Source: an uncultured Candidatus Bathyarchaeia archaeon
GTDB lineage: Archaea; Thermoproteota; Bathyarchaeia; TCS64
Direction: 5' to 3'
Length of the DNA: 37,437 nucleotides
Assembly: GCA_964653295.1 (NCBI GenBank)
Contig: CAZZFH010000001.1
Location: 1-37,437 of the forward strand
The notes beneath the pieces are model-generated. The model was not told the DNA's origin. It worked only from the letters and a program-made list of their open reading frames with translations, and did not search any database. Positions 4,705 to 31,797 of this stretch are shown in pieces. How positions within the stretch are numbered: position 1 is the stretch's first letter; every line of letters starts with the position of its first letter. The position numbers were made by a program, and so were the translations under genes.

Positions 4705-5214
4705 CTATCTGTGCCTTTCTCTTCCCCTTCTCACATTTACTGCCTGACCATTTTTGAAACGCATCATCTCTTCTGAGGTCAATACAGCCTTACCAACAGC
4801 CACTACCTCACCGCTGATATCGCGAACTATTATCTCATCATCTGGTCTAATCCCGGGTCCAGCCTCAACCACATGCTTGGCGAAGAGATTCTTACCCAGC
4901 ACGATGAACTCTAACACATCATCAATCACGACAACATAACCAGTGAATCCAGGCAAAGAATTCAATCTCTCCGCCCCAGCGATAGTGATGGTGAATAAGG
5001 CATCAGTCGGACGATAATTGGCTAGCAACACATCTTCCAAGAAAATATGTCTCGGACGACTCGTGTTTCGGCTATACTCTATATGTATGCCATCTGGAAA
5101 TAGTATCTCTCCTGCCCCGTATCCGAACTGGTAATCGGCTATTGCCCGAAGCCTCTGGAGGTCCTCGTTCATCAGCAAGCCTATGCGTTGATGATTTATA
5201 AGACGATGCCCCAT
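4705..5214 (-). CDS. Stand-alone PUA-domain RNA-binding protein
   Basis: 169-aa ORF. The C-terminal half (GIRPDDEIIVRDISGEVVAVGKAVLTSEEMMRFKNGQAVNVRRG) is a typical PUA pattern. The likely true start is ATG 5172 (MNEDLQRL). Confidence 0.7.
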   Translation of the reverse strand: MGHRLINHQRIGLLMNEDLQRLRAIADYQFGYGAGEILFPDGIHIEYSRNTSRPRHIFLEDVLLANYRPTDALFTITIAGAERLNSLPGFTGYVVVIDDVLEFIVLGKNLFAKHVVEAGPGIRPDDEIIVRDISGEVVAVGKAVLTSEEMMRFKNGQAVNVRRGRERHR

Positions 5215-8357: not shown

Positions 8358-9944
8358 ATGTCGTTTGAGCTGAGGGACCGAGACCTATTGGGAAGAATAG
8401 GCAGGATCACAGTCAAAGGGAAAAACCTTGAAACACCGGCATTCATGCCAGTGGTAAACCCACTAATTGAGACAATCCTTCCCCGAAAGCTCAAAGAAGA
8501 GTTTGGATGCGAGATAATCATCACAAACAGCTACATCATACGGAACCACTTCAAGGATACCTCAAACCTTGAGCTACACAATCTCCTTGACTATGATGGG
8601 GTAGTGATGACTGATAGCGGCGCATACCAGATACTGGTCTATGGCGATGTCGAGGTAACCCAGCCAGAGATAATCGAGTGGCAGAAACAGATTGGCAGCG
8701 ATATCAGCGTCATCCTTGACATCCCCACAGGGTGGGATGTACCAAGGGAGACAGTTGAATACACGGTAGAGGAGACCCTCAGACGGGCGAAGGCAGCATT
8801 ACCGCTAATCGAGGATACCCCAAATCTATGGGTTGGACCTATTCAAGGGGGTAAACATCTGGATCTTGTAGCCGAGTCTGCGAAAAGGATCGGTGAGATG
8901 CCTTTTGATATTCACGCATTGGGGAGTCCAACAGAGGTCATGGAGCGATACATGTACCCGGTCCTTGTTGATATGGCCATGACTGCGAAACTCAATGCCC
9001 CAATCGAGCGCCCAATTCATCTCTTTGGGGCAGGACACCCCAACATATTCGCAATGAGTGTAGCCATGGGATATGACCTATTTGACTCGGCGGCATACGC
9101 CCTCTTCGCCAAAGACGAACGCTACCTCACCAATAGGGGCACATACATCTTCAAAGACCTCCAATATCTACCATGCAGTTGCCCGATCTGCAGAAACCGG
9201 AGCCCAGAAGACCTGCGAGACAGGTCGAAGGGAGAACGCCAACAGTTAATCGCTGAGCATAACATGCATGTGACAATGGCTGAGATGGAAATAGTAAAAC
9301 AAGCTATAACTGAAGGAAGTCTCTGGGACCTTGTAGAGACTAGAGCAAAGGGACATGCCCAGATGATGGCAGCATTGAAAACCCTAGAAAAGTATAGTAA
9401 ATACCTTGAGGAAGGCAGCCCGGGATTCAAAGGCAAAGGAGTATTCTATTATGATTACCATAGCCTCTCCAAGCCAGAGGTAATCAGGTACAATAAAAAA
9501 CTGCTCGAAAACTATCAAAGACCAACAGAAAAAGACATACAAGTACTCTTGACAGCGCCACCCCGAAAACCCTTCAACAAGAATCAAGGATTCAGGAAAC
9601 TCAAGAAACAGACCGTGGAATTCAATGACAGGATTCACTATTGTTTCATGGCTGCTCCATATGGGTTGATACCCGAGTATCTGGCTGAGACCTATCCCAC
9701 TAGCCAGTACCAGATAGCAGAGCCCCTAGACTATGAGACTGTTCAACACACTGTTGATGCCATCATGGAGTACCTAGAGAAACACCCCCTAGAACACACA
9801 GTAATCGTATACAGTAATACTCAGATAGATAACGAACTCATCAAGAGACTGGATGGGAAATACCCCACAATACTGAGTCAAGAACTGGGTGAAGAAGAAA
9901 CAGCTGAAGCATTATTAGATATATTGAAGCAGATCAACAAATAA
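8358..9944 (+). CDS. tgtA: Archaeosine tRNA-guanine transglycosylase (ArcTGT), apparently without a C-terminal PUA domain
   Basis: 528-aa ORF. It shows the TGT catalytic pattern (FELRDRD..GRIGRI...LETPAFMPVVNP, MTDSGAYQ, LFGAGHP) and the Zn site CSCPICR. I could not recognise a PUA motif in the C-terminal 150 aa. Confidence 0.85.
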   Translation: MSFELRDRDLLGRIGRITVKGKNLETPAFMPVVNPLIETILPRKLKEEFGCEIIITNSYIIRNHFKDTSNLELHNLLDYDGVVMTDSGAYQILVYGDVEVTQPEIIEWQKQIGSDISVILDIPTGWDVPRETVEYTVEETLRRAKAALPLIEDTPNLWVGPIQGGKHLDLVAESAKRIGEMPFDIHALGSPTEVMERYMYPVLVDMAMTAKLNAPIERPIHLFGAGHPNIFAMSVAMGYDLFDSAAYALFAKDERYLTNRGTYIFKDLQYLPCSCPICRNRSPEDLRDRSKGERQQLIAEHNMHVTMAEMEIVKQAITEGSLWDLVETRAKGHAQMMAALKTLEKYSKYLEEGSPGFKGKGVFYYDYHSLSKPEVIRYNKKLLENYQRPTEKDIQVLLTAPPRKPFNKNQGFRKLKKQTVEFNDRIHYCFMAAPYGLIPEYLAETYPTSQYQIAEPLDYETVQHTVDAIMEYLEKHPLEHTVIVYSNTQIDNELIKRLDGKYPTILSQELGEEETAEALLDILKQINK

Positions 9945-11413: not shown

Positions 11414-12700
11414 ATGGGCAATAATGAGCAGCCTACCCGAGAGTATACCTTACGTGAATTAATGAAAGGCAATATTCTGGTCTTGACTGTAAGCCGGATA
11501 ATCTGGAGCCTTAGCAGCTCCATCGTATGGCCCTATCAATCATTATTTATTCAAGACTTGGGGGGTACCAAACCAATAATCGGACTGATAACAGCCTTGG
11601 GCAATGTCACAGGAATGCTCTTCTATCCCCTTGGAGGATACATCGCGGATAAATCAGGTAGGGCAAAACTTGTAGGATACGCGACCCTTCTCTATGCTAG
11701 TAGTTTCCTGATATACGCGTTTGCGCCCTCATGGGAGTGGATCGCGATTGCTATATCGGTACAACAATTGATGTTGTTTTACATGCCTGCTCTCAACGCC
11801 ATAATGGCTGACAGCATACCTCCGGGAGCACGGGGAAAGATACTGAGCCTAACCATTAGCATACCCGAGGCAGTAAGAATATTCGCACCCGTCATAGGAG
11901 GCTGGCTAATAGAGACCTATACACGGGTCCCAGCCATGAGAATTGGTTACTTGTTGAGCTTCATTACAGCAATGGCAGTAGGTGTTATGCGGATCAAGTT
12001 CCTGAAAGAGACACTTCCCCCACAGGAGTTCAAGTGGGATATCAAGAAAATATTCATCGAGAGCTACAAGGACATATGGAAATCCAGCCAATGGATATTC
12101 TCCAATCTACGAGGCTACACGGTAATAGCCATGGTCCTTATTTTTGTGGCTAGTCTCGTACAGCCGTTCTGGGTATTATACGCTAATGAGATAGTAGGGC
12201 TATCTGAGTGGCAGTGGGGCCAGATGCTTCTTGTTGCTGGATTAACCAAGACCATTGTGAGCCTTTTTGTCGGTAATTATGTGGATAAGATTGGCCCAAG
12301 AAAATGCATGATGATCGCATTTGTGCTTGGAGCACCGGGAATGATAGCTTTTCCATATGTAACGGGATTCGTTTCAGTGACACTGGTTTATGTTTTGCTT
12401 GTGCTTGCAAACGCGTTTGTCTGGATAAGTAGCGGCGTATACCTAGCCAATATTATTCCCAGAAACATCCGTGGGAGGATAATGGCGGGTCTAGGTCAGG
12501 GTATACCTCTTGGAATCTCGGGTGGTGGATATGCTCAGGGCTTTGTTCTGTTCATTCCCAATATGCTTGGGAGCTTGGTTAGTGGGTTCATCTATGAGTT
12601 AAACCCCATGTATCCATGGTACATCAATGCTGTAACGCTCGTTGCCTGTCTAGGATTCACCATTGGGATGGTCAAAGAGCCTGATCACGCTGAGGTATAA
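11414..12700 (+). CDS. MFS-type transporter
   Basis: About 12 predicted TM segments and an MFS-like loop motif (GGYIADKSGRAK). The ORF-track start at 11330 overlaps the upstream gene, so ATG 11414 (MGNNEQ) is preferred. Confidence 0.7.
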   Translation: MGNNEQPTREYTLRELMKGNILVLTVSRIIWSLSSSIVWPYQSLFIQDLGGTKPIIGLITALGNVTGMLFYPLGGYIADKSGRAKLVGYATLLYASSFLIYAFAPSWEWIAIAISVQQLMLFYMPALNAIMADSIPPGARGKILSLTISIPEAVRIFAPVIGGWLIETYTRVPAMRIGYLLSFITAMAVGVMRIKFLKETLPPQEFKWDIKKIFIESYKDIWKSSQWIFSNLRGYTVIAMVLIFVASLVQPFWVLYANEIVGLSEWQWGQMLLVAGLTKTIVSLFVGNYVDKIGPRKCMMIAFVLGAPGMIAFPYVTGFVSVTLVYVLLVLANAFVWISSGVYLANIIPRNIRGRIMAGLGQGIPLGISGGGYAQGFVLFIPNMLGSLVSGFIYELNPMYPWYINAVTLVACLGFTIGMVKEPDHAEV

Positions 12701-12750
12701 GCGAAACCATTAAAACCAACCTTACTTTTGTATGTGGACGCGTGAAAACA

Positions 12751-12945
12751 ATGCCAGTCGAGATAAAAGACAAGGAAAAATTCATTGAAATATCTGAGAA
12801 TGCCGCAGAGTGCCGGGTCAAGAAAAACAAGGACAATACCAAGCTCAAGCTTAGAACGGGAAAATACCTGTATACTATTAAGCTCGACCCTGATGAGGCG
12901 GATGAATTGGTTGGAAAATTAAACTGTCCAACAGTAGAGATTTAA
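12751..12945 (+). CDS. rpl38e: 50S ribosomal protein eL38
   Basis: MPVEIKDKEKFIEISENAAECRVKKNKDNTKLKLRTGKYLYTIKLDPDEADELVGKL parallels eukaryotic and archaeal eL38 (MPxxI.D...F.......K.V.IKKNKDN.KFK.R...YLYTL...D.EKAEKL). Confidence 0.8.
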   Translation: MPVEIKDKEKFIEISENAAECRVKKNKDNTKLKLRTGKYLYTIKLDPDEADELVGKLNCPTVEI

Positions 12946-12994
12946 AATCAGTTATATCTTGTTAATTAAAAATTATTTAAAAAAATTTAGAAAT

Positions 12995-13013
12995 AGTAGA
13001 TTTTTTTTCTACT
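12995..13013. terminator. Short hairpin (AGTAGA-T7-TCTACT) in T-rich DNA between convergent genes
   Basis: The inverted repeat 12995-13000 / 13008-13013 is embedded in oligo-T/oligo-A tracts between rpl38e (+) and the 83-aa ORF (-). Oligo-T is the usual archaeal termination signal. Confidence 0.35.
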
Positions 13014-13260
13014 TTTTCTCAAGATAGGCAATGTTGTTAACAACTGAGACCTCGACGCTGTTTTGAAGGTCTCTTGCATCGATTCTTTTCTTTAACTGTG
13101 TTCTGAGATAGTTGGCGTCTTTCTCCGGCACTTCCACCTTTACTAACTTGTGTTCACTTTTCATGAATGAATCGATGATGGGGTCATACTTACTGCCTTT
13201 TCTATATTTTCTTGAAGGCTTTTTTGATACTGGTTTTAAGTCGAACTTAACGTCACTCAT
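13009..13260 (-). CDS. Hypothetical small lysine-rich protein in an AT-rich island
   Basis: 83-aa ORF with an ATG start. No family recognised. It is flanked by very AT-rich intergenic DNA on both sides. Confidence 0.45.
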   Translation of the reverse strand: MSDVKFDLKPVSKKPSRKYRKGSKYDPIIDSFMKSEHKLVKVEVPEKDANYLRTQLKKRIDARDLQNSVEVSVVNNIAYLEKK

Positions 13261-13426
13261 ATTATACGCCTGATATTCTTGTCATCTATTTCCTTTATAT
13301 AAGTTATCATTGATTAATTGTTTATTGAATTAGTTACTCTCAAGTTGATAGAATAACTCTCATAAATAAAAATAACAAAAAAGTTTACACATGTATACAC
13401 AATATAATATATATAAAAAAATTAGA

Positions 13427-14554
13427 CTAAAGACAAACTCGTCTAATTAGTTGCTTGTAAGTCTCAACACCACGATCAATTTGCTCCAAACTAATATACT
13501 CATCAGGAGTATGCGCTTGATCTATGCTCCCCGGACCACAGATCACAGTAGGTATCCCAGCTTTTGAGTAGCTTACAGCCTCAGTATAATATGGTGCACC
13601 AACGGGCTCAGTACCAAGTATATCTTTTAATAAAGATACAATCGGTGAATCCAATGAGATATCTAATGGCAAACTAGCACTATTACTCAGTATTTCCGCT
13701 TTAAACATAGGATCATTTTCTGATAACCTGTTTATAATATCCATTAACCACTTCTTCGAGGTATTAGGGTCCTCATGACCGGGTACAAACCTGAAATTCA
13801 AGTTTAGATGAGCTTGATCAGGGATGATATTCGCCTTGAAGCCCCCTTTCATAATAGTGCATTCGACAGTAGTGGGTCCCAGAAGCGGATGCGGACTCTG
13901 GTTTAGCCTGTTTTGGAGGTCTCTAAGTTCATAGAGGAAATCGGCTGCTTTCTGGATCGCGTTTATACCTAACTCAGGTCGGCTGCTATGGGCAGCCTGC
14001 CCATGGATCATTACCTCAGCTCCCCCGGAGCCCTTGTGAGCTGGGATTATCTCCATCAAGCTAGGTTCACCTATCACCCCAAACATCGCCTCTTTGGGGG
14101 TAACCAGTCTATCTGAGAGCACCCGGTCCACGAACCACCCCCCAGTGTCCTCACCAGCAGTAAAAACGAGGGTCAACTGTTTCTTAAACTCCTCATTTAT
14201 CAATTCCTCTGCAGCTTGAATAATACAGGCATCGGGGCCCTTCATATCACAGGCGCCCCGACCGTATAGCCTACCATCCTTAACAATTGGCTCAAAGGGT
14301 CCAGAGACCTTCCATAGCCCCGGGTCACCAGCCAGTACAACATCTATATGCCCTGATAGAACCAGCCCAGGGTTGGTTCCTTCACCTATTTTTGCAATTA
14401 TGTTTGCTCTTCCCGGTTCTATGACCTGTAGATATGTATCGAAGCCTAGATTATCCAGATAGGCTTGTATCCATTCGGCGCAGGGTTGTTCCCTTGTTGG
14501 GGGTCCACTGGTATCGAATTTGATTAACTCCTTGGCTATATCAACGGCATTCAA
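13427..14554 (-). CDS. M20-family metallopeptidase (ArgE/DapE-like deacylase)
   Basis: 375-aa ORF with SGHIDVV and GRGACDMKG motifs and a FTAGEDTGG block, all typical of ArgE/DapE/CPG2 enzymes. TTG start. Confidence 0.8.
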   Translation of the reverse strand: MNAVDIAKELIKFDTSGPPTREQPCAEWIQAYLDNLGFDTYLQVIEPGRANIIAKIGEGTNPGLVLSGHIDVVLAGDPGLWKVSGPFEPIVKDGRLYGRGACDMKGPDACIIQAAEELINEEFKKQLTLVFTAGEDTGGWFVDRVLSDRLVTPKEAMFGVIGEPSLMEIIPAHKGSGGAEVMIHGQAAHSSRPELGINAIQKAADFLYELRDLQNRLNQSPHPLLGPTTVECTIMKGGFKANIIPDQAHLNLNFRFVPGHEDPNTSKKWLMDIINRLSENDPMFKAEILSNSASLPLDISLDSPIVSLLKDILGTEPVGAPYYTEAVSYSKAGIPTVICGPGSIDQAHTPDEYISLEQIDRGVETYKQLIRRVCL

Positions 14555-22046: not shown

Positions 22047-23777
22047 TTGATTGAGCTGAATTTCGGTAAATATCCACTTTATGATGAGCTTGTGGAGATA
22101 CTCCAGAGTCTTCACAAGGAGTACCCCAAGCTAACCAAACTATACAGCATAGGAAAAACACTCCAAGGCAGGGACCTCTGGACCATGGAGGTTACCAACC
22201 AAGAGACAGGACCAGGGAAGGAGAAACCCGGCATATGGGTTGATGGAAATACCCACAGCAGCGAGCCTACGGGCACCAATGTTTGTTTGAAGACCATCTG
22301 GTATCTTGTTACCAAGTATGGTGTGGATGAGACGGTCACAGAGATCATGGATAACAGGGTGGTCTATGTGCTCCCAAGGGTAAACCCAGATGGGGCTGAG
22401 ATATTCCTCACCAAACCATACCACTATACCAGTGGAGGTGTGCCCAACCCAGACTTCAAGGATGGGGAAGGACACTATGAGGAAGACGTGAATGGCAATG
22501 GAAAATCAGCCTTCATGCGCTGGATAGACTCCAATGGAGACTACAAGAAATCCAAGAAAGACCCACGCCTCATGATCAAGAGAGAACCAGAGGACACCCA
22601 TGAGGAAGATGGTCCCTTCTACAAGGTACTCCGCGAGGGTTTATTCATGAAGTGGAAACCCGGCAAAGAGATCACAATGGCTCCCAGAAGATATTTTGGA
22701 GGTAGCAATAGGAACTTCCCTGCCTACTGGGCGCCGGGAGGGCTACCCCTTGGGGGCTCAGGTCCTTTCCCGCTCTGGGAACGAGAGCCAAGAGCTATCA
22801 GCGACTTCTGGGCTAGCCACCCTAACCTTAGCGGCATGCACACATACCACACCAGCGGCGGATTAATCCTCAGAGAAGCAAACGCCCACCCAGACAGCTG
22901 GTTCCAAGAATCCGGCTGCGAGGAAGACCTAGAAGTATACAAGGTACTTGGAGGCATCGGTAAAGAGCTAACCGAGTACCCCTGCATCAGCATCTATGAT
23001 GAGTTCACATTCGAGGACGACCGCCCCTTCAGGCGTGGATGCGCCACCAGCTTCTTCTATGAGCACCTAGGAGCCTTTGTGTTCAGCACCGAGCTCTGGG
23101 ATTGGCCTTGGATGATAGGTTTGGATCACTTCAGGGAGCGTGGAGGCGTTGACTTCGACTGGGCTAAACTCTCAGAAGAGGAACAGCTTAATGAACTCAA
23201 ATGGATCGATGAAAACTATTCTGACGGCTTCCTTGACTGGACACCCCATGAGCACCCCCAGCTAGGACCAGTGGAGATCGGGGGAGTAGAGCGAAAATAT
23301 ACACGCAGGAATCCTCCGCCGGGAAAATGGCTTGAATACGAGGTAGATAAGTGCCTCATGTTCGCCATTCGACACGCAACCCTACTTCCCTTGTTGAGGA
23401 TCACCGAGCACAGGGTGGAGAAGGTAGCTGAAAAGATCTACAAGGTCTCGGCACAGGTAGCTAACACCGGGTTCATGTCTACCAATGTTACCAAGATGGC
23501 GGTTAAGATCAAGGTAGCCAAACCGGTGCTAGCTGAGATCAAGTTACCGGAGGGCGCCGAACTGGTCACTGGGCATGAGAAGGTTGATCTAGGTCACCTT
23601 GAGGGTCGTAGCGCTAAGTTATTGCTTCCAAGGGTTATCGGGGCTGATGTGGTGGACAAGACACGGAGCAGCGTGGAGTGGGTAATCAAAACCGAGTCCA
23701 ATAAGCCGCTTGAGGTAACCATCGAGACAAGGTGCCCCAGAGCCGGTACAGACAGGAAGAAGGTAATACTTCAATAA
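22047..23777 (+). CDS. M14-family zinc carboxypeptidase (no obvious signal peptide)
   Basis: 576 aa. The N-terminal YSIGKTLQGRDLWTMEVTN...GIWVDGNTHSSEPTG contains the M14 HxxE zinc motif, and PRVNPDG follows. TTG start. Confidence 0.8.
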   Translation: MIELNFGKYPLYDELVEILQSLHKEYPKLTKLYSIGKTLQGRDLWTMEVTNQETGPGKEKPGIWVDGNTHSSEPTGTNVCLKTIWYLVTKYGVDETVTEIMDNRVVYVLPRVNPDGAEIFLTKPYHYTSGGVPNPDFKDGEGHYEEDVNGNGKSAFMRWIDSNGDYKKSKKDPRLMIKREPEDTHEEDGPFYKVLREGLFMKWKPGKEITMAPRRYFGGSNRNFPAYWAPGGLPLGGSGPFPLWEREPRAISDFWASHPNLSGMHTYHTSGGLILREANAHPDSWFQESGCEEDLEVYKVLGGIGKELTEYPCISIYDEFTFEDDRPFRRGCATSFFYEHLGAFVFSTELWDWPWMIGLDHFRERGGVDFDWAKLSEEEQLNELKWIDENYSDGFLDWTPHEHPQLGPVEIGGVERKYTRRNPPPGKWLEYEVDKCLMFAIRHATLLPLLRITEHRVEKVAEKIYKVSAQVANTGFMSTNVTKMAVKIKVAKPVLAEIKLPEGAELVTGHEKVDLGHLEGRSAKLLLPRVIGADVVDKTRSSVEWVIKTESNKPLEVTIETRCPRAGTDRKKVILQ

Positions 23778-23799: not shown

Positions 23800-24399
23800 A
23801 TGAAGGCAGAGGAGATCACTGGACGATACATCGTCTACTACTTCGCTGCCTTACTTTTCTTTTACGAACTCTTCATGATCATACCCAGCACATGGATCGA
23901 GCTACTCACAGCCCGGCTAAGCTCAGGACTCCTCAACATGCTAGGACTAAACTCCGAGTATGGGTTGAATCATGTATGGGTCTGGATGACCCTCACAGGA
24001 GGCGCCCGAGATGTCAAGGTATACATAATCCGTGAATGCACAGCGTTTCATGTTTGGGGCATACTCTTGGGGCTTATAGTGCCGCTCCAAGGACCTGAGT
24101 GGGGTAGAAAACTCAAGGCAGTCGCCTTTGGAGGAGTCCTCGTCTTCTTGATGAACCTAACAAGAATCATGGTTACAGTATATCTCACCGGTTACGATGT
24201 GCTACCATTCAGCTGGTTCTTCACAAACCCAACAGTCGACACATATCACTACCCTGTGAGCTTTGCTTATGGTGTAATTGGGATAGCCATCGTTATCACG
24301 CTAATTAACGCACATATTTTGCCAGAGCTTGGTGATTTCCTCGTTGAGCTCCCAGACGCATTGATGAAAAACATCCGCAATCTACGTAAATCAGAGTAG
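23800..24399 (+). CDS. Archaeosortase/exosortase-family membrane protein (small variant, 199 aa)
   Basis: Polytopic membrane protein with a Cys-containing block, IIRECTAFHVWGILLG (equivalent to the xECSG active-site Cys), and an NLTRIMV Arg block, as in the exosortase/archaeosortase family. Confidence 0.6.
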   Translation: MKAEEITGRYIVYYFAALLFFYELFMIIPSTWIELLTARLSSGLLNMLGLNSEYGLNHVWVWMTLTGGARDVKVYIIRECTAFHVWGILLGLIVPLQGPEWGRKLKAVAFGGVLVFLMNLTRIMVTVYLTGYDVLPFSWFFTNPTVDTYHYPVSFAYGVIGIAIVITLINAHILPELGDFLVELPDALMKNIRNLRKSE

Positions 24400-24497: not shown

Positions 24498-25562
24498 TTA
24501 TCCGCCGGGTTCATTCTTCATAAACTCCCTGAGCAAAGTGGTAGCGAAACCACCCTTATGCAGCATAAAGGATAACTCGACGCCCCGGGGAGAATCAGAT
24601 ACCTCGATCCTTGGAATCAACCTACCTAGGCGACGGGTCCCTGTGACCTTCATTCGCTTGAAGTTCTTCATGGACATCTCAGACTCTTCTAGAATCTCAG
24701 CCTCCAGAGCACCAGAATCACCCAGTGCCTCAGACATCTGAAAACCAAACATAGGAGCCGTGAAACTGATCTCCTGAGCAACATAACGAGGCTGTTCATC
24801 AGCCAAATCATTTACCCAGAAAATACCACCAGTATCATGCTTCTTTGCAACATCACCCACAATCAGGGTATCAAATAAGCCACGCCTAACCCGCTCAGAG
24901 AGATACCTGTTACAGAGATAGCTCTGATAGCTTGCGATTAGTAGCTTGCTTAGCCATCTATCTGTGAACCTGCGCTTGCCTTGAAGTATTCCCCAGCCAT
25001 CCACCACATTCTTACCATGCTTACCGGTTCTTTGCTCACCGTAATAGTTGGGTAAGCCACGTTTATGGATCATATCCGCGATGCGTTTGCTGTTCTCGAT
25101 TGCTTGGTTCTTTGGGATATGGATGGCTGTGATTATTACCTTGAACTTGTTACCGATGAGGTGCCCAGCCCTGAACTTGTTACTATGCCACTTCGCCCAA
25201 TTCACCCTTACATCAAGGCTCCCCTCAATAACCTCCATAGCCTCACCAGAGGAGATCACATTCTGCTCAAAGAGAATACTGAAGGTCTGGGTAGAGACCG
25301 AGAACTTATCCTTGAGCCCACCAGTGCCAATGTTCTGGGGCTTCAGGTTAAACAACTCTGCTAATTGAAGCTGCACATCCCGTGTGGTCTGATTCACCTT
25401 TGTTATGTTCACATACAGGTGGCTACCATCCCCCGAGGGCTCATAGAGCGAGACCTCCTCAACCATAAAGTCTTCAGGGCGAGCCCTGATCCTGCCCCCT
25501 ACACCTCTAAGTCCTGCAGTGAGGTACGGGAGTGATAAGTCGAGGGGTGGAGGTTTTGTCAT
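24498..25562 (-). CDS. truD: tRNA pseudouridine(13) synthase TruD
   Basis: 354 aa. It has the TruD signature GGLKDKFSVSTQ (GxKDxxAxTxQ) and NYYGEQRTG. Confidence 0.88.
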   Translation of the reverse strand: MTKPPPLDLSLPYLTAGLRGVGGRIRARPEDFMVEEVSLYEPSGDGSHLYVNITKVNQTTRDVQLQLAELFNLKPQNIGTGGLKDKFSVSTQTFSILFEQNVISSGEAMEVIEGSLDVRVNWAKWHSNKFRAGHLIGNKFKVIITAIHIPKNQAIENSKRIADMIHKRGLPNYYGEQRTGKHGKNVVDGWGILQGKRRFTDRWLSKLLIASYQSYLCNRYLSERVRRGLFDTLIVGDVAKKHDTGGIFWVNDLADEQPRYVAQEISFTAPMFGFQMSEALGDSGALEAEILEESEMSMKNFKRMKVTGTRRLGRLIPRIEVSDSPRGVELSFMLHKGGFATTLLREFMKNEPGG

Positions 25563-26540: not shown

Positions 26541-27895
26541 CTATGAGAAATTAGATGAGAGACTAGATATTTTCTCAAGTTTCTCCAAGTTGTCAACCTG
26601 CGTGATTATCCTTGAGACCTTATCGCTTGGGAGGGTCATGGATGCGAACGCGGTGAACTTTTCCTTGATGAACTCCAGTGGAATGGGTTGCTTGTCTTCC
26701 TCAAAAAGGTGATAACGTCTACCATCGCGGGTGAATATCTCAAGCCTTGTCCCTATCTTCGTGGGGAAGACCTCATCGATGACTGGATCAATATAAACCT
26801 CGGCTTTCTGCCCAAGCTCAACCACCCGGGGATCAGTGTAACAGTCAAAGAACTCCTTCATGAAAACCTGTCCCTCAACAAGGGCTATGGCAACTGCTAC
26901 TGCAGGGTGATTCTGGGCGTGGAGTGGGGTCTCGGCTACCTTGAGCTGGTTCTCAGCTGTGATGTGGTTCAACCCTATCCTGATCTTTTCTATGTCATCG
27001 ATCTCGATCCCATTCTCTTCCTGTAAGTCCAGCGCCATCTTGATGGGGGGACATAGCTCGTGGCAGCAAGCATAGGGCTTGAACTTGCATTTGAGAATCT
27101 TATAATCCGTGCCCAAGCCCTCGGTTAAACGGTTCAAGTCGTAGCCTTCAGCGTGAGACGCCAATAACCCATACTTTCCCTCGAAAACCGTACAAGGACC
27201 AGTATAGCCCTCACGAGCCAAGAGGGCGGCTAGGACCCCATTCATGGCAGCCTTCCCAGCGTGCAACCGCTTACTCATATCACCTGTGGTCAGCCATTCC
27301 TCTAAACCTGCTGCCTGAGTCCCAGCCAATCCAAAGGCGTTTACCAATTCATCCTCGTTTAACCCAAGCAACTTACCAGCAGCAGCAACTGCACCAATAG
27401 TGCCTACTACGCCTGTTGCGTGGAAGCCCCTGTTCCTGAGCCCGGGATAGACAGCGCTATCGACCCTACAGCTCACCTCATAACCGGCAACCAGAGCCAC
27501 AATAAGGTCTCTACCAGTTACCTGCTCTGCCTCTGCTACTGCTAAAGCAGCGGGTATGATGCATGCTCCCGGGTGTGCCCAGCTGGGGCGTGCCCTGAGT
27601 CATCTGCATCTATTCCATGAGCCATTGTTCCGTTTGCTAGGGCAGCCATTATCATGGGGTATTTTGTTGTTTCTCCGAGTACAGTGGATTGGGGTTCTCC
27701 CTTCATCTGCCGTACAATGTTGATGACCATCTGGCTCCACGGTAATTCGTGGGCGCCTAGGATGTTTCCAAGTGAATCTAGGAGATGCATCTTGGTTTTT
27801 ATTACTACTTCTGGGGCTAGGTCGTTGTACTTGAGTTCTGAAACATATTTGGCGAAAATCCGTGAGTATTCTTCCATATAGACACCGTGCTTCAT
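26541..27895 (-). pseudogene. MmgE/PrpD-family dehydratase gene interrupted by a single frameshift
   Basis: ORFs 27542-27895 and 26541-27500 are the N- and C-terminal parts of one PrpD-fold protein. The upstream frame ends ...AHGIDADDSGHAPAGHTREH...*. The adjacent frame reads ...SWAHPGACIIPAALAVAEAEQVTGRDLIVALVAGYEV, the conserved D.DD...HPG..IIPAALA block. The switch must lie between 27578 and 27599, around a G4/C4 run at 27585-27588. Confidence 0.75.
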
Positions 27896-27981
27896 TAGAG
27901 GGCTCGGAAAATATATCTTTTATTTGAAAAGAAAAGGATATGTCATAACTTTAGATTTGTGCAACTTTTTTCTTAAAAATT

Positions 27982-28146
27982 TTAGAGTAATGGTAGGCTG
28001 CCTGTCACCTTGTCTATGAACTGCTCCTGATGAGGACCAATACAAGTTGTGGTACCCGGGGCTACCTCAGTATACCCAGCATCCTGAATCAAAACATAGG
28101 TAATATCCAGCGACTCAGCCTTCTTCGCGAGTTCCTCAAGCTCCTA
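27982..28146 (-). pseudogene. Orphan 3' fragment of a second pth2 copy (last 53 codons plus stop)
   Basis: Minus-strand translation gives ELEELAKKAESLDITYVLIQDAGYTEVAPGTTTCIGPHQEQFIDKVTGSLPLL*. Intact Pth2 reads EELEELAEKAESLDITYVLIQDAGHTEVAPGTTTCIGVGPHQEQFIDKVTGNLPLL*. There is an in-frame TAG immediately upstream and no start codon. Confidence 0.85.
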
Positions 28147-28401
28147 TCTAGCATCAAATAGCTGACCCATGATCCGAGGCATACAAGAGCATCATCGTGA
28201 CAAGACGCGGGGGGATATGAGAGCGTAGGAAGCCTGGTGCTCAATTACTTGTTTCAAGGTTGACTGAGTGTAGGCATTGGGTGGGTGAAAAAAGGGTTAC
28301 GGGGCTATCTTGACCAACACGTATCTGATATATGGTTCAAATGCATTGGTTAAGAAACTTTTACAAAAAAGCATAAAACACGTCCAAAGAGATTCAATGA
28401 T

Positions 28402-30159
28402 GTGAACCTTCAAGGGCAAGGCAGGATTGGATACTGGTCTTCCTTCTTGTTTGTCCTATTATCATTTCTTGTGTTCAACCAAGCCTGCAGTGGATACAGT
28501 GAACCCATAGAAATGGATCAAAGCCTTCGGGTAGAGGGAAACGAGAACCTATCATACATTAATGAGAACCTGGTTATTGATGGTAACATAGAGGTAGGGG
28601 GTGATGCCTCGCTTCTTTTCCGAGACTGCAACATCACAATACTCTGGAGTCAGTTTAGTGGTAAATCGAATATACTGGTATCAGACAGGGGTGTACTTCG
28701 ACTGGAAAACAGCACAGTATGGATAAGACTGGACACCGAGTACCATGTCTCAACAATCGGCGATATCACCATTCAAGATCAAGCGAATCTCATCCTAGAC
28801 TCATCCACGATTCTGTCAACAGACATTATCTTCATGAGTGTAAGAAACAAGGCAAGGGTAGAGTTTACTGATTCAATGTATTTTGGGAAGGCGCCGAGGT
28901 CTAGTCAACACGGGATAATCGAGGACATGATGCCACGAGGTGTAATCAGCGAACTGAATGATGATTACTGCATATATGTCCAGGAAAACGCGGTTTTGAC
29001 AGCAGTTGGCTCCGAGCTTGGGGTTGTTGATTTATCTGATGACACATGGTGCAGTATAAACAACTCAAGAATCGTCATATTATCGCCATACTCGTCAAAG
29101 GAGACTCAGTGTTCTGAGTCCGAGATCACTATCATCTCAATGAGTCAGATGAACTCAAACTTCACATTAAATGGCACCCTAAGCGGGTACTATGATCTAT
29201 TTATCTTGGAGGAGGCTCTTGGCTCAGATACAGGTGGAAATCTACGCCTGATTGACTCCAGAATCGAGAAAGTAAGACTGTCACTGGTTGACTGCAAATC
29301 AGAGATTATGGACGCAAACCTTTGGCAGCTAACCATATCAGGCGGAGAAACAAACATACAAGGCTCAGAGATAACGATAGCCAACCTCTACTATGGAAAC
29401 ATAACGATAACGGACTCAGAGATACCATATCTTCTTGGAAACTGCCGCGACGGCAAACTAAGGGTACAGGGCTGTGAATGTCTATGGGTCAGCCTTACAG
29501 GACATAACCGAGACGGTTTGGATTATATCTGGGCGGAGTTCAATGACACAGACATAGAGACCTGTGTTATAAACTACATGAGTATAGTGGAGGAGGCAGA
29601 TATATTCCTAAGAGACGTCACCATGTATAACCTGTCGATGAAGGCGGCGCCTAGATTCGAAATGTATACAGATAACTGTGTAGTCGAAAACAGGGTCACC
29701 CTAACCAGTCTAATGGGCGCCCCAATGATCAACCTCAGAGGCACAATCGAATTCTATATGGATGACTTGGTTGTCTACGGTAACACGATACTGCACCGTG
29801 AATACGAGATTAGGTTACAGGAAGACGGTGAACCCTCCGCAAATAAGCAGGTGCAACTCGTAAAGGATTCAGTTACAATAGATAACGCGACTTCAAATCA
29901 AGAAGGGCTCCTGTTCTTTGATGTATACTGGGAGGAGGGAGCCACTCCTGACTTGTATTGGTATGATAAGCGTCTGTATGATATTGATGAACCATTGATA
30001 GTAAGGGTAGGCGACACTGAGAGGGAGATCAGGATTCTCAGTGATACCCCCGTCGAGATTGAGTTAGCTGAACCCGTTTTCCCGGTAATCTATGCGGTAA
30101 TCACAACAGGGGTTCTGGTGTTGTTTATTGCTTTCATTTTTATTCGGAAGCGGCTCTAG
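28402..30159 (+). CDS. Secreted or anchored surface protein, probably a beta-helix-type repeat protein, with many N-glycosylation sequons
   Basis: 585 aa. Signal peptide-like N-terminus (WSSFLFVLLSFLVFNQACSG). Recurring short N/D/S/I-rich segments typical of parallel beta-helix adhesins. C-terminal TM anchor is PVFPVIYAVITTGVLVLFIAFIFIRKRL. GTG start. Confidence 0.6.
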   Translation: MNLQGQGRIGYWSSFLFVLLSFLVFNQACSGYSEPIEMDQSLRVEGNENLSYINENLVIDGNIEVGGDASLLFRDCNITILWSQFSGKSNILVSDRGVLRLENSTVWIRLDTEYHVSTIGDITIQDQANLILDSSTILSTDIIFMSVRNKARVEFTDSMYFGKAPRSSQHGIIEDMMPRGVISELNDDYCIYVQENAVLTAVGSELGVVDLSDDTWCSINNSRIVILSPYSSKETQCSESEITIISMSQMNSNFTLNGTLSGYYDLFILEEALGSDTGGNLRLIDSRIEKVRLSLVDCKSEIMDANLWQLTISGGETNIQGSEITIANLYYGNITITDSEIPYLLGNCRDGKLRVQGCECLWVSLTGHNRDGLDYIWAEFNDTDIETCVINYMSIVEEADIFLRDVTMYNLSMKAAPRFEMYTDNCVVENRVTLTSLMGAPMINLRGTIEFYMDDLVVYGNTILHREYEIRLQEDGEPSANKQVQLVKDSVTIDNATSNQEGLLFFDVYWEEGATPDLYWYDKRLYDIDEPLIVRVGDTEREIRILSDTPVEIELAEPVFPVIYAVITTGVLVLFIAFIFIRKRL

Positions 30160-30219
30160 CAGGGTCTGTAAATTTTTCTTTACAAACAGGCTTAAACTTT
30201 CAACAAGAAAATATGAATC

Positions 30220-31434
30220 ATGGACCGAGAGAACACCCTCATCATCGCGGCTGTTATATTCATACTTACAGTGGTATTGTTCTTCCCAAAGGAACCCGAT
30301 GCAGAAGAAACTCAACTCGTCAAGATAGGAGTATTAACTTTCGACAAGGACAATAATGCGTCTGAGGCGTTCCTATCAACCCAAGCAATTGATGATATTA
30401 ACCAGTACTGCCTGAATCAATCAATCCCATATCAGTTTATACCTGTATTCAAGTGTAGCGAGAAGAGGGTTCAACGCGCCATTGAGAGGGTAGATGAGTT
30501 TCACATGGAAAACGTCTCAATCATCGTGGGTTTCAGGTGGGCAGGTACGCTGGATGCCTGTGACTATCAAAGCAAGAGCTATGGGATGGTGATTGTCTCA
30601 CCCTATGCTTCTACATCGTTCCACCGCGATATTTACCCCCATATTATTCAGTTAATGCCGATTGATATTCACGAGACACAGGTAATCGCCCGGGCTATGG
30701 TTGAGCTTGGTTTTATGGAGACGGTTATCTTCACTGAGGAATACAATACGCGCCCCGGTTACATGGTGGATGAGTTCAGAAGGTACTATGAGGGAATGGG
30801 TGGAGCGGTAAATGATACGGTGGTATATAGGTTCTCACAAAACCTAGCTCAGATTAACGGGACATTATCAAGACTGGAAGACGCAGTAAACCCAAACAGT
30901 GCAATCTTTTACCCTGAAGAATATCCATACACTCAATACTTCCACGAAATACACAATCACCCGAGTCTACATAACCACACATGGTTCTCAACAAGCAGCG
31001 CAAAAAGTAACTACACCGCGGAGATATCAGCTACCCCGGAGTTAGATGAGATGAGACTCATTCACCCCTATCTAGATACAACACCAGACCATTCAAACCC
31101 GGTGTACCAGGAGTTAAACAGCTTATACTATGACGAGTTCGGAGAAAACATGACGCGTTACACTGGGAATATATATGACGCGGTCTGGTTATCAGCATTA
31201 ACCATCATCGAGACAGGTGAATACAACAACATATCCTTCATCGAAACACTCCCAGAGATAGCCAAAAACTACACTGGAGCCTCGGGTAACTGCAGCCTAG
31301 ACCAATACGGAGACAGACTCCACGCAGGCTACAACATCTACAGATATGTCCTCCGTGACGAAGACATCTACCTCAAAGAAATCGGGTACTGCGATACATC
31401 AAAAAATGAAATCGAATGGACTTCATTACAATAG
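30220..31434 (+). CDS. Membrane-anchored type-1 periplasmic-binding-protein-fold protein (LivJ/ANF-receptor-like ligand-binding protein)
   Basis: 404 aa. N-terminal TM anchor, then VKIGVLTFDK...AIDDIN...IIVGFRW, typical of Leu/Ile/Val-binding-protein-like SBPs. About 10 NxS/T sequons. The 3' end overlaps the convergent pth2 by 9 nt. Confidence 0.55.
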   Translation: MDRENTLIIAAVIFILTVVLFFPKEPDAEETQLVKIGVLTFDKDNNASEAFLSTQAIDDINQYCLNQSIPYQFIPVFKCSEKRVQRAIERVDEFHMENVSIIVGFRWAGTLDACDYQSKSYGMVIVSPYASTSFHRDIYPHIIQLMPIDIHETQVIARAMVELGFMETVIFTEEYNTRPGYMVDEFRRYYEGMGGAVNDTVVYRFSQNLAQINGTLSRLEDAVNPNSAIFYPEEYPYTQYFHEIHNHPSLHNHTWFSTSSAKSNYTAEISATPELDEMRLIHPYLDTTPDHSNPVYQELNSLYYDEFGENMTRYTGNIYDAVWLSALTIIETGEYNNISFIETLPEIAKNYTGASGNCSLDQYGDRLHAGYNIYRYVLRDEDIYLKEIGYCDTSKNEIEWTSLQ

Positions 31435-31595
31435 GGGTAGGTTGCCTGTCACCTTGTCGATGAACTGCTCCTGATGAGGACCTACTCCAATACAAGTTGT
31501 GGTACCAGGTGCCACCTCTGTGTGCCCCGCATCCTGAATCAAGACATAGGTAATATCAAGTGACTCAGCCTTCTCAGCAAGCTCCTCAAGCTCCT
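31426..31595. repeat. Copy B of the pth2 3'-end repeat (partner at 27982-28146)
   Basis: Hand alignment of 31436-31595 with 27992-28145 gives about 16 mismatches over about 154 aligned nt, plus one 6-nt in-frame indel (TACTCC, 31483-31488). Many differences are synonymous. Confidence 0.85.
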
Positions 31596-31797
31596 CAAAG
31601 CTATCAGCTTGAAGTGCTACCTTCTTGGCTCCCTCGTCCCTCCACCTTTTCCAGTGCTTGGTCTGGGTCCGCTTACACTCCTCGCTACAACTAACTGCCG
31701 CGTGGCAAGCCTGCGCTATCATCTTACCGAGGCTCATGTCGAGATCGGTGCGCATTACTATGACCATCTTATAGGTGAAAGGACTGCCCTTAGCCAT
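31426..31797 (-). CDS. pth2: Peptidyl-tRNA hydrolase, archaeal type (Pth2)
   Basis: 123 aa: KMVIVMRTDLDMSLGKMIAQACHAAV...KKVALQ...DAGHTEVAPGTTTCIGVGP matches the Pth2 family. Its ATG directly abuts the aspS stop (TAGATG). Confidence 0.9.
   Translation of the reverse strand: MAKGSPFTYKMVIVMRTDLDMSLGKMIAQACHAAVSCSEECKRTQTKHWKRWRDEGAKKVALQADSFEELEELAEKAESLDITYVLIQDAGHTEVAPGTTTCIGVGPHQEQFIDKVTGNLPLL

Follow-up and report, generated by a model that had tools for sequence, protein, structure and literature searches.

The last ~54 codons of the gene pth2, together with the stop codon, are present twice in a 37,437-nt contig of an uncultured Bathyarchaeia archaeon (CAZZFH010000001.1; this whole stretch is the window, and all coordinates are positions in it). 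The two copies lie in direct orientation ~3.4 kb apart. One is the 3' end of an intact pth2, the other an orphan fragment beside a gene of the MmgE/PrpD family (prpD), and the sole two open reading frames (ORFs) between them, BH585 and PBP404, encode putative surface proteins (table 1). How did the end of a housekeeping gene come to be left behind in this way? The explanation that we favour, with a probability of about 0.6, is that one-sided homologous recombination combined with an illegitimate join placed chromosomal DNA of a related lineage, in the gene order that we call type A, in a genome with the order pth2–prpD, stranding the old 3' end of pth2, and that the locus was reworked later. 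A first-pass annotation of this DNA had described the direct repeat, with only two plus-strand genes inside it, as an att-like scar of a decayed integrating element, and had named homology-driven exchange of a surface-gene cassette as the fallback. It is the fallback that fits the comparison of strains.

Table 1. Features of the pth2 locus in the window.
Feature	Position	Strand	Remarks
MmgE/PrpD-family gene	26541..27895	-	1-nt frameshift near 27581-27593; adjoins pth2 in L104
Orphan pth2 3' fragment	27982..28145 (or 28146)	-	codons ~70-123 and stop, 2-codon deletion; non-coding
Unmatched spacer at junction, ~70 nt	28146..28215		no detectable homology to anything
BH585 upstream region	28216..28401		homologous to the MFS-BH intergenic region of type-A relatives
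BH585, 585 aa	28402-30159	+	putative membrane-anchored, sequon-rich, all-beta surface protein; no Pfam family
PBP404, 404 aa	30220-31434	+	type-I periplasmic-binding fold, N-terminal anchor; Pfam ANF_receptor
Intact pth2, 123 aa	31426-31797	-	Pfam PTH2, E=7e-43
Duplicated 3' segment of intact pth2	31426..31595	-	foreign-like; 19% divergent from the nearest backbone relative, L087
pth2 5' part	31596..31797	-	native-like; continuous with the conserved genes aspS - 169-aa gene - Alba - amidohydrolase

The repeat is far beyond chance, since the next-best direct repeat in the surrounding 7.5 kb is 30 nt at 70% identity. Aligned, the copies show 20 substitutions, and the orphan has lost 6 nt without a change of frame. 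Their identity is 86.6–87.8%, varying with gap placement (the first-pass annotation had given roughly 90%), and the longest exact runs common to both are 23, 20 and 16 nt. The homology is limited by the pth2 stop codon at one end and by ~28145/28146 at the other. The orphan translates as ELEELAKKAESLDITYVLIQDAGYTEVAPGTTTCIGPHQEQFIDKVTGSLPLL followed by the stop; another stop precedes it and there is no usable start.

Did the two copies diverge as debris or as parts of working genes? The differences between them fall at the three codon positions as 4/1/15, with a ratio of non-synonymous to synonymous divergence (dN/dS) of 0.05 and a synonymous divergence (dS) of 0.66. When the two orphan alleles, that of the window and a second one in the related contig L084, are compared with intact pth2 alleles, the differences again lie at third positions and dN/dS is 0.03–0.07 (0.03–0.06 for the window's own orphan), the same as between intact genes; hence the orphan sequences were functional pth2 until recently. 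(L-numbers denote related loci or contigs used for comparison. All come from metagenomes, several as short contigs with low coverage; L084 and L111 are ~2.4 kb each.) These ratios support the proposal, already made in the first-pass annotation from the mostly synonymous substitutions, that the two copies evolved as coding sequence in different lineages. The nearest allele to the orphan is the pth2 of L021 (90%), above its own intact partner (87%). The orphan is probably the displaced original 3' end of pth2.

What does the site look like in relatives? Of the 80 loci recovered in a search with AspRS, nearly all bear the label Bathyarchaeia. About 50 of them keep the block amidohydrolase–Alba–169-aa gene–aspS–pth2, and ~56 keep aspS–pth2 itself, while the gene content after pth2 varies. 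In distant relatives (AspRS 81–84%) pth2 is followed almost directly by homologues of the window genes at 23800–24399 and 22047–23777; in closer relatives differing gene sets are inserted after it. The site downstream of pth2 is therefore a plasticity zone. A scan with the PrpD protein yielded L104 and L087. In L104 (60.6 kb; AspRS 96%, Pth2 93%) pth2 is followed, after 59 nt, by an intact PrpD gene, UbiA and the next window genes. BH, PBP and any second piece of pth2 are absent from this site, as is TruD; L104 is otherwise collinear with the window. L104 is an empty site, showing pth2 next to PrpD where the cassette is absent, an adjacency that the first-pass annotation had suggested looking for. 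In L087 (14.7 kb; AspRS 97%) the order is window-like, pth2–PBP–BH–PrpD–UbiA, with PBP 62% and BH 51% identical to the window's. The occupied sites are thus those of the window, L084, L087 and L111. A second piece of pth2 was found, over all loci searched, in a long form only in the window, L084 and L111, and in a short form only in L087 and L111.

Homologues of BH and PBP are regular chromosomal neighbours of pth2, as in L019, L081, L082, L083, L086, L087, L112, L113 and L114, and every fetched BH/PBP contig bearing more than the gene itself and TruD came from the aspS–pth2 neighbourhood. The type-A order is MFS(-) BH(+) PBP(+) pth2(-) aspS(-), then a cystathionine-synthase-like gene, Dus and others, into which extra genes may be wedged: an ABC exporter with TrmB (L081, L083), a radical-SAM gene (L082) or two unknown genes (L113). 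In the window the last 9 nt of PBP404 overlap the 3' end of pth2 on the opposite strand, and this convergent overlap is identical in L019, L082, L086 and L114, where PBP abuts pth2. Since the cargo and the left flank both match type-A loci, the insert can be described as a slice of type-A chromosome, reaching from outside BH through PBP into pth2, and this slice appears, by comparison of gene orders, to sit in a genome whose own order is pth2–prpD. Identity of BH/PBP to the window's alleles is 51/62% in L086 and L087, 64/81% in L081 and 99%/89% in L084/L111 (ranges 51–99% for BH and 62–89% for PBP), with AspRS at 90–97%; no sampled lineage matches as donor of the window's own BH/PBP allele. 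The PBP gene is tandemly duplicated beside pth2 in L019 (2732–3960, second copy frameshifted) and in L114 (3074–5590), further evidence of unequal recombination at this locus.

At the left end of the insert, pth2 codon ~70 abuts DNA from upstream of BH, and the two joined sequences share nothing. The window, L084 and L111 have one and the same junction, GCTCCT followed directly by ATCTAGCATC. They belong to three independent assemblies (the NCBI contig, ENA ERZ25073488 and ENA ERZ23498689), across which the BH DNA is 98–99.5% identical. The ~70-nt spacer next to the junction may represent filler DNA or the remains of a decayed gene. Within the BH upstream region, an AT-rich 28-nt motif, AAGAAACTTTTACAAAAAAGCATAAAAC, at 28352–28379 (~25–50 nt before the start of BH) hardly varies in L081, L082, L085, L086 and L087, although the BH proteins are only 51–64% identical; it is probably the BH promoter. 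From this arrangement the left end reads as an illegitimate join of BH-upstream DNA to a truncated pth2, and not as an att core.

If the cassette entered by recombination within pth2, the working gene should itself be a hybrid. Against L087, the 5' part of the intact pth2 has 14 differences in 207 positions (6.8%) and the 3' part 31 in 162 (19.1%; Fisher p=0.0004); against L104 the same contrast has p=0.01. It is absent against L021, L019 and L081, and so is not a general rate effect. The divergence peak over the 3' segment is mostly synonymous (dN/dS 0.06), and in a sliding profile the rest of the right-hand block is ~91% identical to L087. These comparisons support a chimeric pth2 that changes, at the start of the repeat, from a native-like 5' part to a foreign-like 3' part. 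Because the 3' part alone departs from L087 in this way, the 3' end of the working gene appears to have come with the cassette, and the earlier suggestion that the insert brought a replacement 3' end is borne out.

The three assemblies that have the junction in common are mosaics in their other parts. L084, from a separate ENA sample, covers window positions 27988–30452. Its junction is identical to the window's, its BH upstream region 99.3% and its BH 99.5% identical, while the body of its orphan is only 77.5% identical, has the 6 nt that the window's orphan lacks, and finds its nearest match in the pth2 of L087 (~92%). On the window side, orphan and PrpD together (~26590–28125) form a ~1.5-kb patch that is 67–83% identical to L087 and L104, whereas UbiA, just past the patch, is 90–96% identical to L087, and L087 and L104 are themselves 81–94% identical across PrpD. 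On this profile the stretch ~26590–28125 appears to be an imported patch, from a donor that necessarily carried prpD beside an intact pth2. We accordingly dropped the idea that the window's orphan is the recipient's native 3' end, its best match being L021 and not L087 or L104. A donor strand with long homology to the backbone would overwrite the orphan up to the limit of homology, which explains a constant junction beside variable orphan alleles. The window PrpD gene has GACTCAGGGCACGCC where relatives encode D-S-G-A-R-P, one G apparently having been lost from a run of G, and is in frame in L104 and L087. The frameshift is either a real pseudogene mutation in an imported patch or a homopolymer sequencing error.

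L111, from a third sample, contains in its 2.4 kb the start of TruD, a 33-nt pth2 stub, a stub of the BH C-terminus, PBP, a 165-nt pth2 fragment with the 6-nt deletion, the junction and the start of BH. At 28 of 29 informative sites the 165-nt fragment is in the state of the window's orphan (O) or of its intact copy (I), the exception being marked x: OOOOOOO x IIIIII OOOOOOOOOO IIIII. The switches between these four alternating blocks sit in shared runs of 14–16 nt, too short for a chimera of k-mer assembly. The alternation indicates that the two pth2 copies of a window-like genome recombined, by conversion, unequal crossover or a circle. The PBP of L111 is ~70% identical to the window's in its first 400 nt and 92–100% after that; its truD is 78.6% identical to the window's, as against 98–100% for the cassette parts. 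The arrangement suggests that L111 contains two units, on a single short contig; a search for longer contigs with the L111 TruD gave only fragments of 1.3 kb or less. In L087 the last ~33 nt of pth2, lying next to PrpD, are fused to a remnant of the BH C-terminus, a stub-to-stub junction that it has in common with L111, and are followed by another join, this one to the BH promoter, and by a full-length but divergent BH–PBP pair. Stubs beside a complete divergent BH imply that the cassette arrived there in more than one round. We had taken the L087 DNA between the pth2 remnant and BH for an MFS stub; alignment with L111 ruled this out and identified it as the BH remnant. Site-specific recurrence of this second junction type was also set aside, since homologous imports can overwrite a stub to its limit of homology. 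Altogether the strain comparison supports later exchanges at the locus.

How might this arrangement have been built? The ancestor would have had the order aspS–pth2–prpD, like present L104. It would have taken up chromosomal DNA of a related Bathyarchaeon with the order aspS–pth2–(PBP)(BH)–MFS, one end of which recombined homologously in pth2 or aspS while the other, which lay a short way upstream of BH, became attached by an illegitimate join at about codon 70 of the recipient's pth2. The product would be a hybrid, intact pth2, PBP404, BH585 and the stranded old 3' end beside prpD. Such homology-facilitated illegitimate recombination, or '3'-end displacement', would make an integrase unnecessary. 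The comparison of strains supports a later history in which the locus served as a replacement island for surface proteins: BH/PBP alleles were swapped with other lineages by homologous recombination, the orphan was overwritten up to the junction by intact pth2 sequence of other lineages, the pth2 copies recombined with each other, and deletions left further stubs.

Several points weigh against this account. We infer the founding event and did not observe it. Its direction is unprovable: L104 may preserve the ancestral state, or a deletion between the repeats may have returned it to the empty one. With the 3' part of pth2 in L104 and L087 the window's orphan is only 79–83% identical, the value varying with the alignment, and with that in L021 90%; it is thus not the expected backbone allele, and an extra import over orphan and prpD has to be assumed. 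About 70 nt at the junction match nothing. The ~35 nt at 28224–28258 resemble the start of MFS with marginal support: 2 of 500 shuffles reach the score for one relative, and the likeness is not significant for three others. Finally, the linkage in L111 passes through the repeats.

Might the insert rather be a mobile cassette that needs no integrase? On a Campbell-type scheme the pth2 repeats would release a circle (pth2 fragment, junction, BH, PBP), which would re-enter other genomes by a single homologous crossover in pth2 or PBP, rebuilding pth2 and leaving the recipient's sequence in the stop-proximal part of the orphan. The scheme accommodates one junction and a near-identical BH beside differing orphan alleles and neighbours (prpD in the window, PBP in L111). 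It also accommodates the L111 order of PBP, hybrid pth2 fragment, junction and BH, which is the joint expected of a circle or an unequal crossover, a fragment made solely of the window's two alleles, and the lower identity of truD than of the cassette parts in that contig. But ordinary double-crossover imports reaching the homology boundary explain the pattern too; the 6-nt deletion common to the orphans of the window and L111 favours common descent over independent integrations; and no circular form was seen, L111 being a single 2.4-kb contig. We regard the scheme as unlikely, and are just as doubtful of its corollary, that the pth2 fragment is a portable homology arm which makes BH–PBP plus scar a self-contained, integrase-free mobile unit. 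If true, the portable pth2 arm would be a recombination-only analogue of attP/attB, spreading surface-protein variants to other Bathyarchaeia lineages and always rebuilding an essential gene.

That the insert is what remains of a site-specific element (a provirus, plasmid or casposon-like element) in the 3' end of pth2, its integrase and most of its genes deleted, is a view we think improbable. A direct repeat does bracket the insert, the gene is restored, an empty site exists, and archaeal elements do integrate into 3'-distal parts of protein genes (PMC6563490). Yet no recombinase turned up in the window, for which the first-pass annotation had already noted the lack of an integrase, or in some ten neighbourhoods of relatives; the cargo and left flank are chromosomal DNA of sister lineages; the repeat, 165 nt at 87%, lacks a long identical core (its longest exact run, 23 nt, neither demonstrates nor rules out a site of strand exchange); L087 and L111 have a second type of junction, which interrupts pth2 elsewhere; and viral or plasmid homologues were not found. 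With chromosomal cargo, an illegitimate join, variable junctions and no recombinase found, the att-like scar first proposed is not supported. Duplication of the pth2 3' end within one lineage, followed by divergence in place, would suit copies in the same orientation 3.4 kb apart. We hold it to be very improbable, because a non-coding fragment could not reach a dS of 0.66 at a dN/dS of 0.05, because L021, another species, has a pth2 that is nearer to the orphan than the intact copy in the window is, and because orphan alleles stand 22% apart between strains whose BH is 99.5% identical. Scarcely credible is an assembly or binning artefact that fused two strains where they have a piece of pth2 in common. 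The window does come from one contig of a metagenome-assembled genome (MAG), and co-occurring strains with other arrangements exist; however, a chimeric join at the repeat would create no duplication, the orphan/BH junction recurs without a changed base in two further assemblies, made from different samples, and exact runs common to the copies are at most 23 nt.

The searches for mobile elements were as follows. Among the main ORFs of at least 100 aa in the window, a few of which had no match, Pfam gave no recombinase or transposase; its matches are housekeeping families (FTHFS, MTD, archaeosine TGT, Lsm, beta-CASP, FKBP, carboxypeptidase and others). The precomputed Pfam lists of L081–L083, L085, L086 and L113 contain no recombinase. 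IMG/VR holds no relatives of BH585 or PBP404, and PLSDB and INPHARED none of BH585, so that a suggested search for the cassette genes by integrases, plasmids or viruses found no link. Rfam detected only two tRNAs, both far from the locus. The first-pass annotation had also recommended comparing composition, and this does not mark the cassette as foreign: codon-usage distances of the two genes (0.076 and 0.101) are within the range of other genes, while the cassette's tetranucleotide distance is ~2 standard deviations above the mean and its GC content 0.443 against 0.462 for the window. A related donor could produce a shift this slight, and so could the unusual amino-acid composition of surface proteins.

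What do the two cassette genes encode? BH585 and PBP404 carry 10 and 11 N-x-S/T sites (sequons), or 1.7 and 2.7 per 100 aa, and are the most sequon-rich genes of the window, every other having 1.1 per 100 aa or less. In a collection of 5.8 billion proteins BH585 has 7 homologues and PBP404 has 17. Look-ups by exact sequence gave no hit for Pth2 or BH585 of the window; its own proteins came up through a cluster look-up. The model of BH585 (pLDDT 76.5) is all-beta between N-terminal and C-terminal hydrophobic helices. Against PDB it has no significant fold match (best E=1.3e-3, TM at most 0.34); the better matches are all right-handed beta-helices (PL6 lyases, tailspikes, pertactin). Of the original description, sequon richness and the membrane anchor of PBP404 hold, and the beta-helix-like fold is a weak assignment from the model. 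PBP404 matches ANF_receptor/Peripla_BP_6 and has a hydrophobic segment at its N-terminus; a sequence search of PDB gave no match. No partner permease gene is linked to either gene. Both proteins are clade-restricted and probably glycosylated. Between the window and L084, PBP404 codons ~9–20, which form the membrane anchor (30244–30277), differ by 11 substitutions in 34 nt, with 99–100% identity on either side. This patch is either a short conversion patch or a hypervariable anchor segment.

A model with an anchor and an illegitimate join has been proposed for orphan arrays in Vibrio type VI secretion system (T6SS) and Rhs loci (PMC5361080). The likeness to displacement at Rhs and Vibrio cholerae T6SS loci lies in a conserved homologous anchor upstream, an illegitimate other end, an old 3' part kept as an orphan and perhaps, after repeated events, strings of remnants, as L087 suggests. 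Here, by contrast, the organism is an archaeon, the anchor is housekeeping (pth2/aspS) and not the variable protein itself, the cargo is a surface-protein pair in place of a toxin–immunity pair, and the pth2 orphan gives no sign of retained function. Replacement flexible genomic islands, which encode exposed cell structures and pass between clonal frames by homologous recombination, are recognized by a boundary peak of mostly synonymous substitutions (PMC4033161); the cell-wall island of Haloquadratum walsbyi (PMC4535781) may be an archaeal case. They resemble the present locus in that peak, in holding very different versions of surface-protein genes at one position, and perhaps in near-identical island DNA beside divergent flanks (L084 and L111 here, on ~2.4-kb contigs); the present island differs in being tiny, with two genes, and in having one boundary marked by partial gene duplication. 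In a survey of Thaumarchaeota, 14 of 68 elements were integrated into 3'-distal parts of protein genes (PMC6563490). These have in common with pth2 the direct repeats of a protein-gene 3' end, an intact target and an empty site in a relative. Unlike them, the locus here has no integrase or mobile genes, a long and diverged repeat where they have a short exact att, cargo from a sister-lineage chromosome, and a junction position that is not constant. To our knowledge such events have been undescribed in this lineage until now.

The pth2 locus offers a base-level record of gene flow among uncultured Bathyarchaeia lineages that are 10–20% divergent. If the account given above is right, the surface-protein repertoire turns over by recombination anchored in housekeeping genes, without the machinery of mobile elements, and the patterns of replacement islands and orphaned 3' ends, so far mainly bacterial and haloarchaeal, extend to a major archaeal group of sediments. 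The site downstream of pth2 may then be usable for tracking strain diversity, and perhaps virus–host arms races, in metagenomes. A caution also follows: a direct repeat of part of a gene is not automatically an att site.

The window offers some further observations. TruD (24498–25562) lies between UbiA and a 199-aa gene. L104 and L088–L091 lack it at this position, and in L001 and L111 it comes immediately downstream of pth2 or of a stub of that gene. The presence of PrpD and that of UbiA vary independently too, which makes everything between pth2 and the 199-aa gene a zone of plasticity. Four Alba–aspS–pth2 contigs (L009, L014, L029 and L076) sit in MAGs labelled Krumholzibacteriaceae, Desulfaltia, Patescibacteria and Verrucomicrobia, and are probably mis-binned Bathyarchaeia contigs. 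Far from the locus, the stretch 12700–13430 has a GC content of ~0.36 and no ORF of at least 100 aa; it holds a short ORF at ~12753–12945 and an AT-rich spacer, and Rfam found nothing in it. The archaeosine tRNA-guanine transglycosylase (TGT) seems to be split between 8358–9944 and 4705–5214: one gene has TGT and DUF5591, and a separate 169-aa gene, 3 kb off on the other strand, has C2 and PUA.

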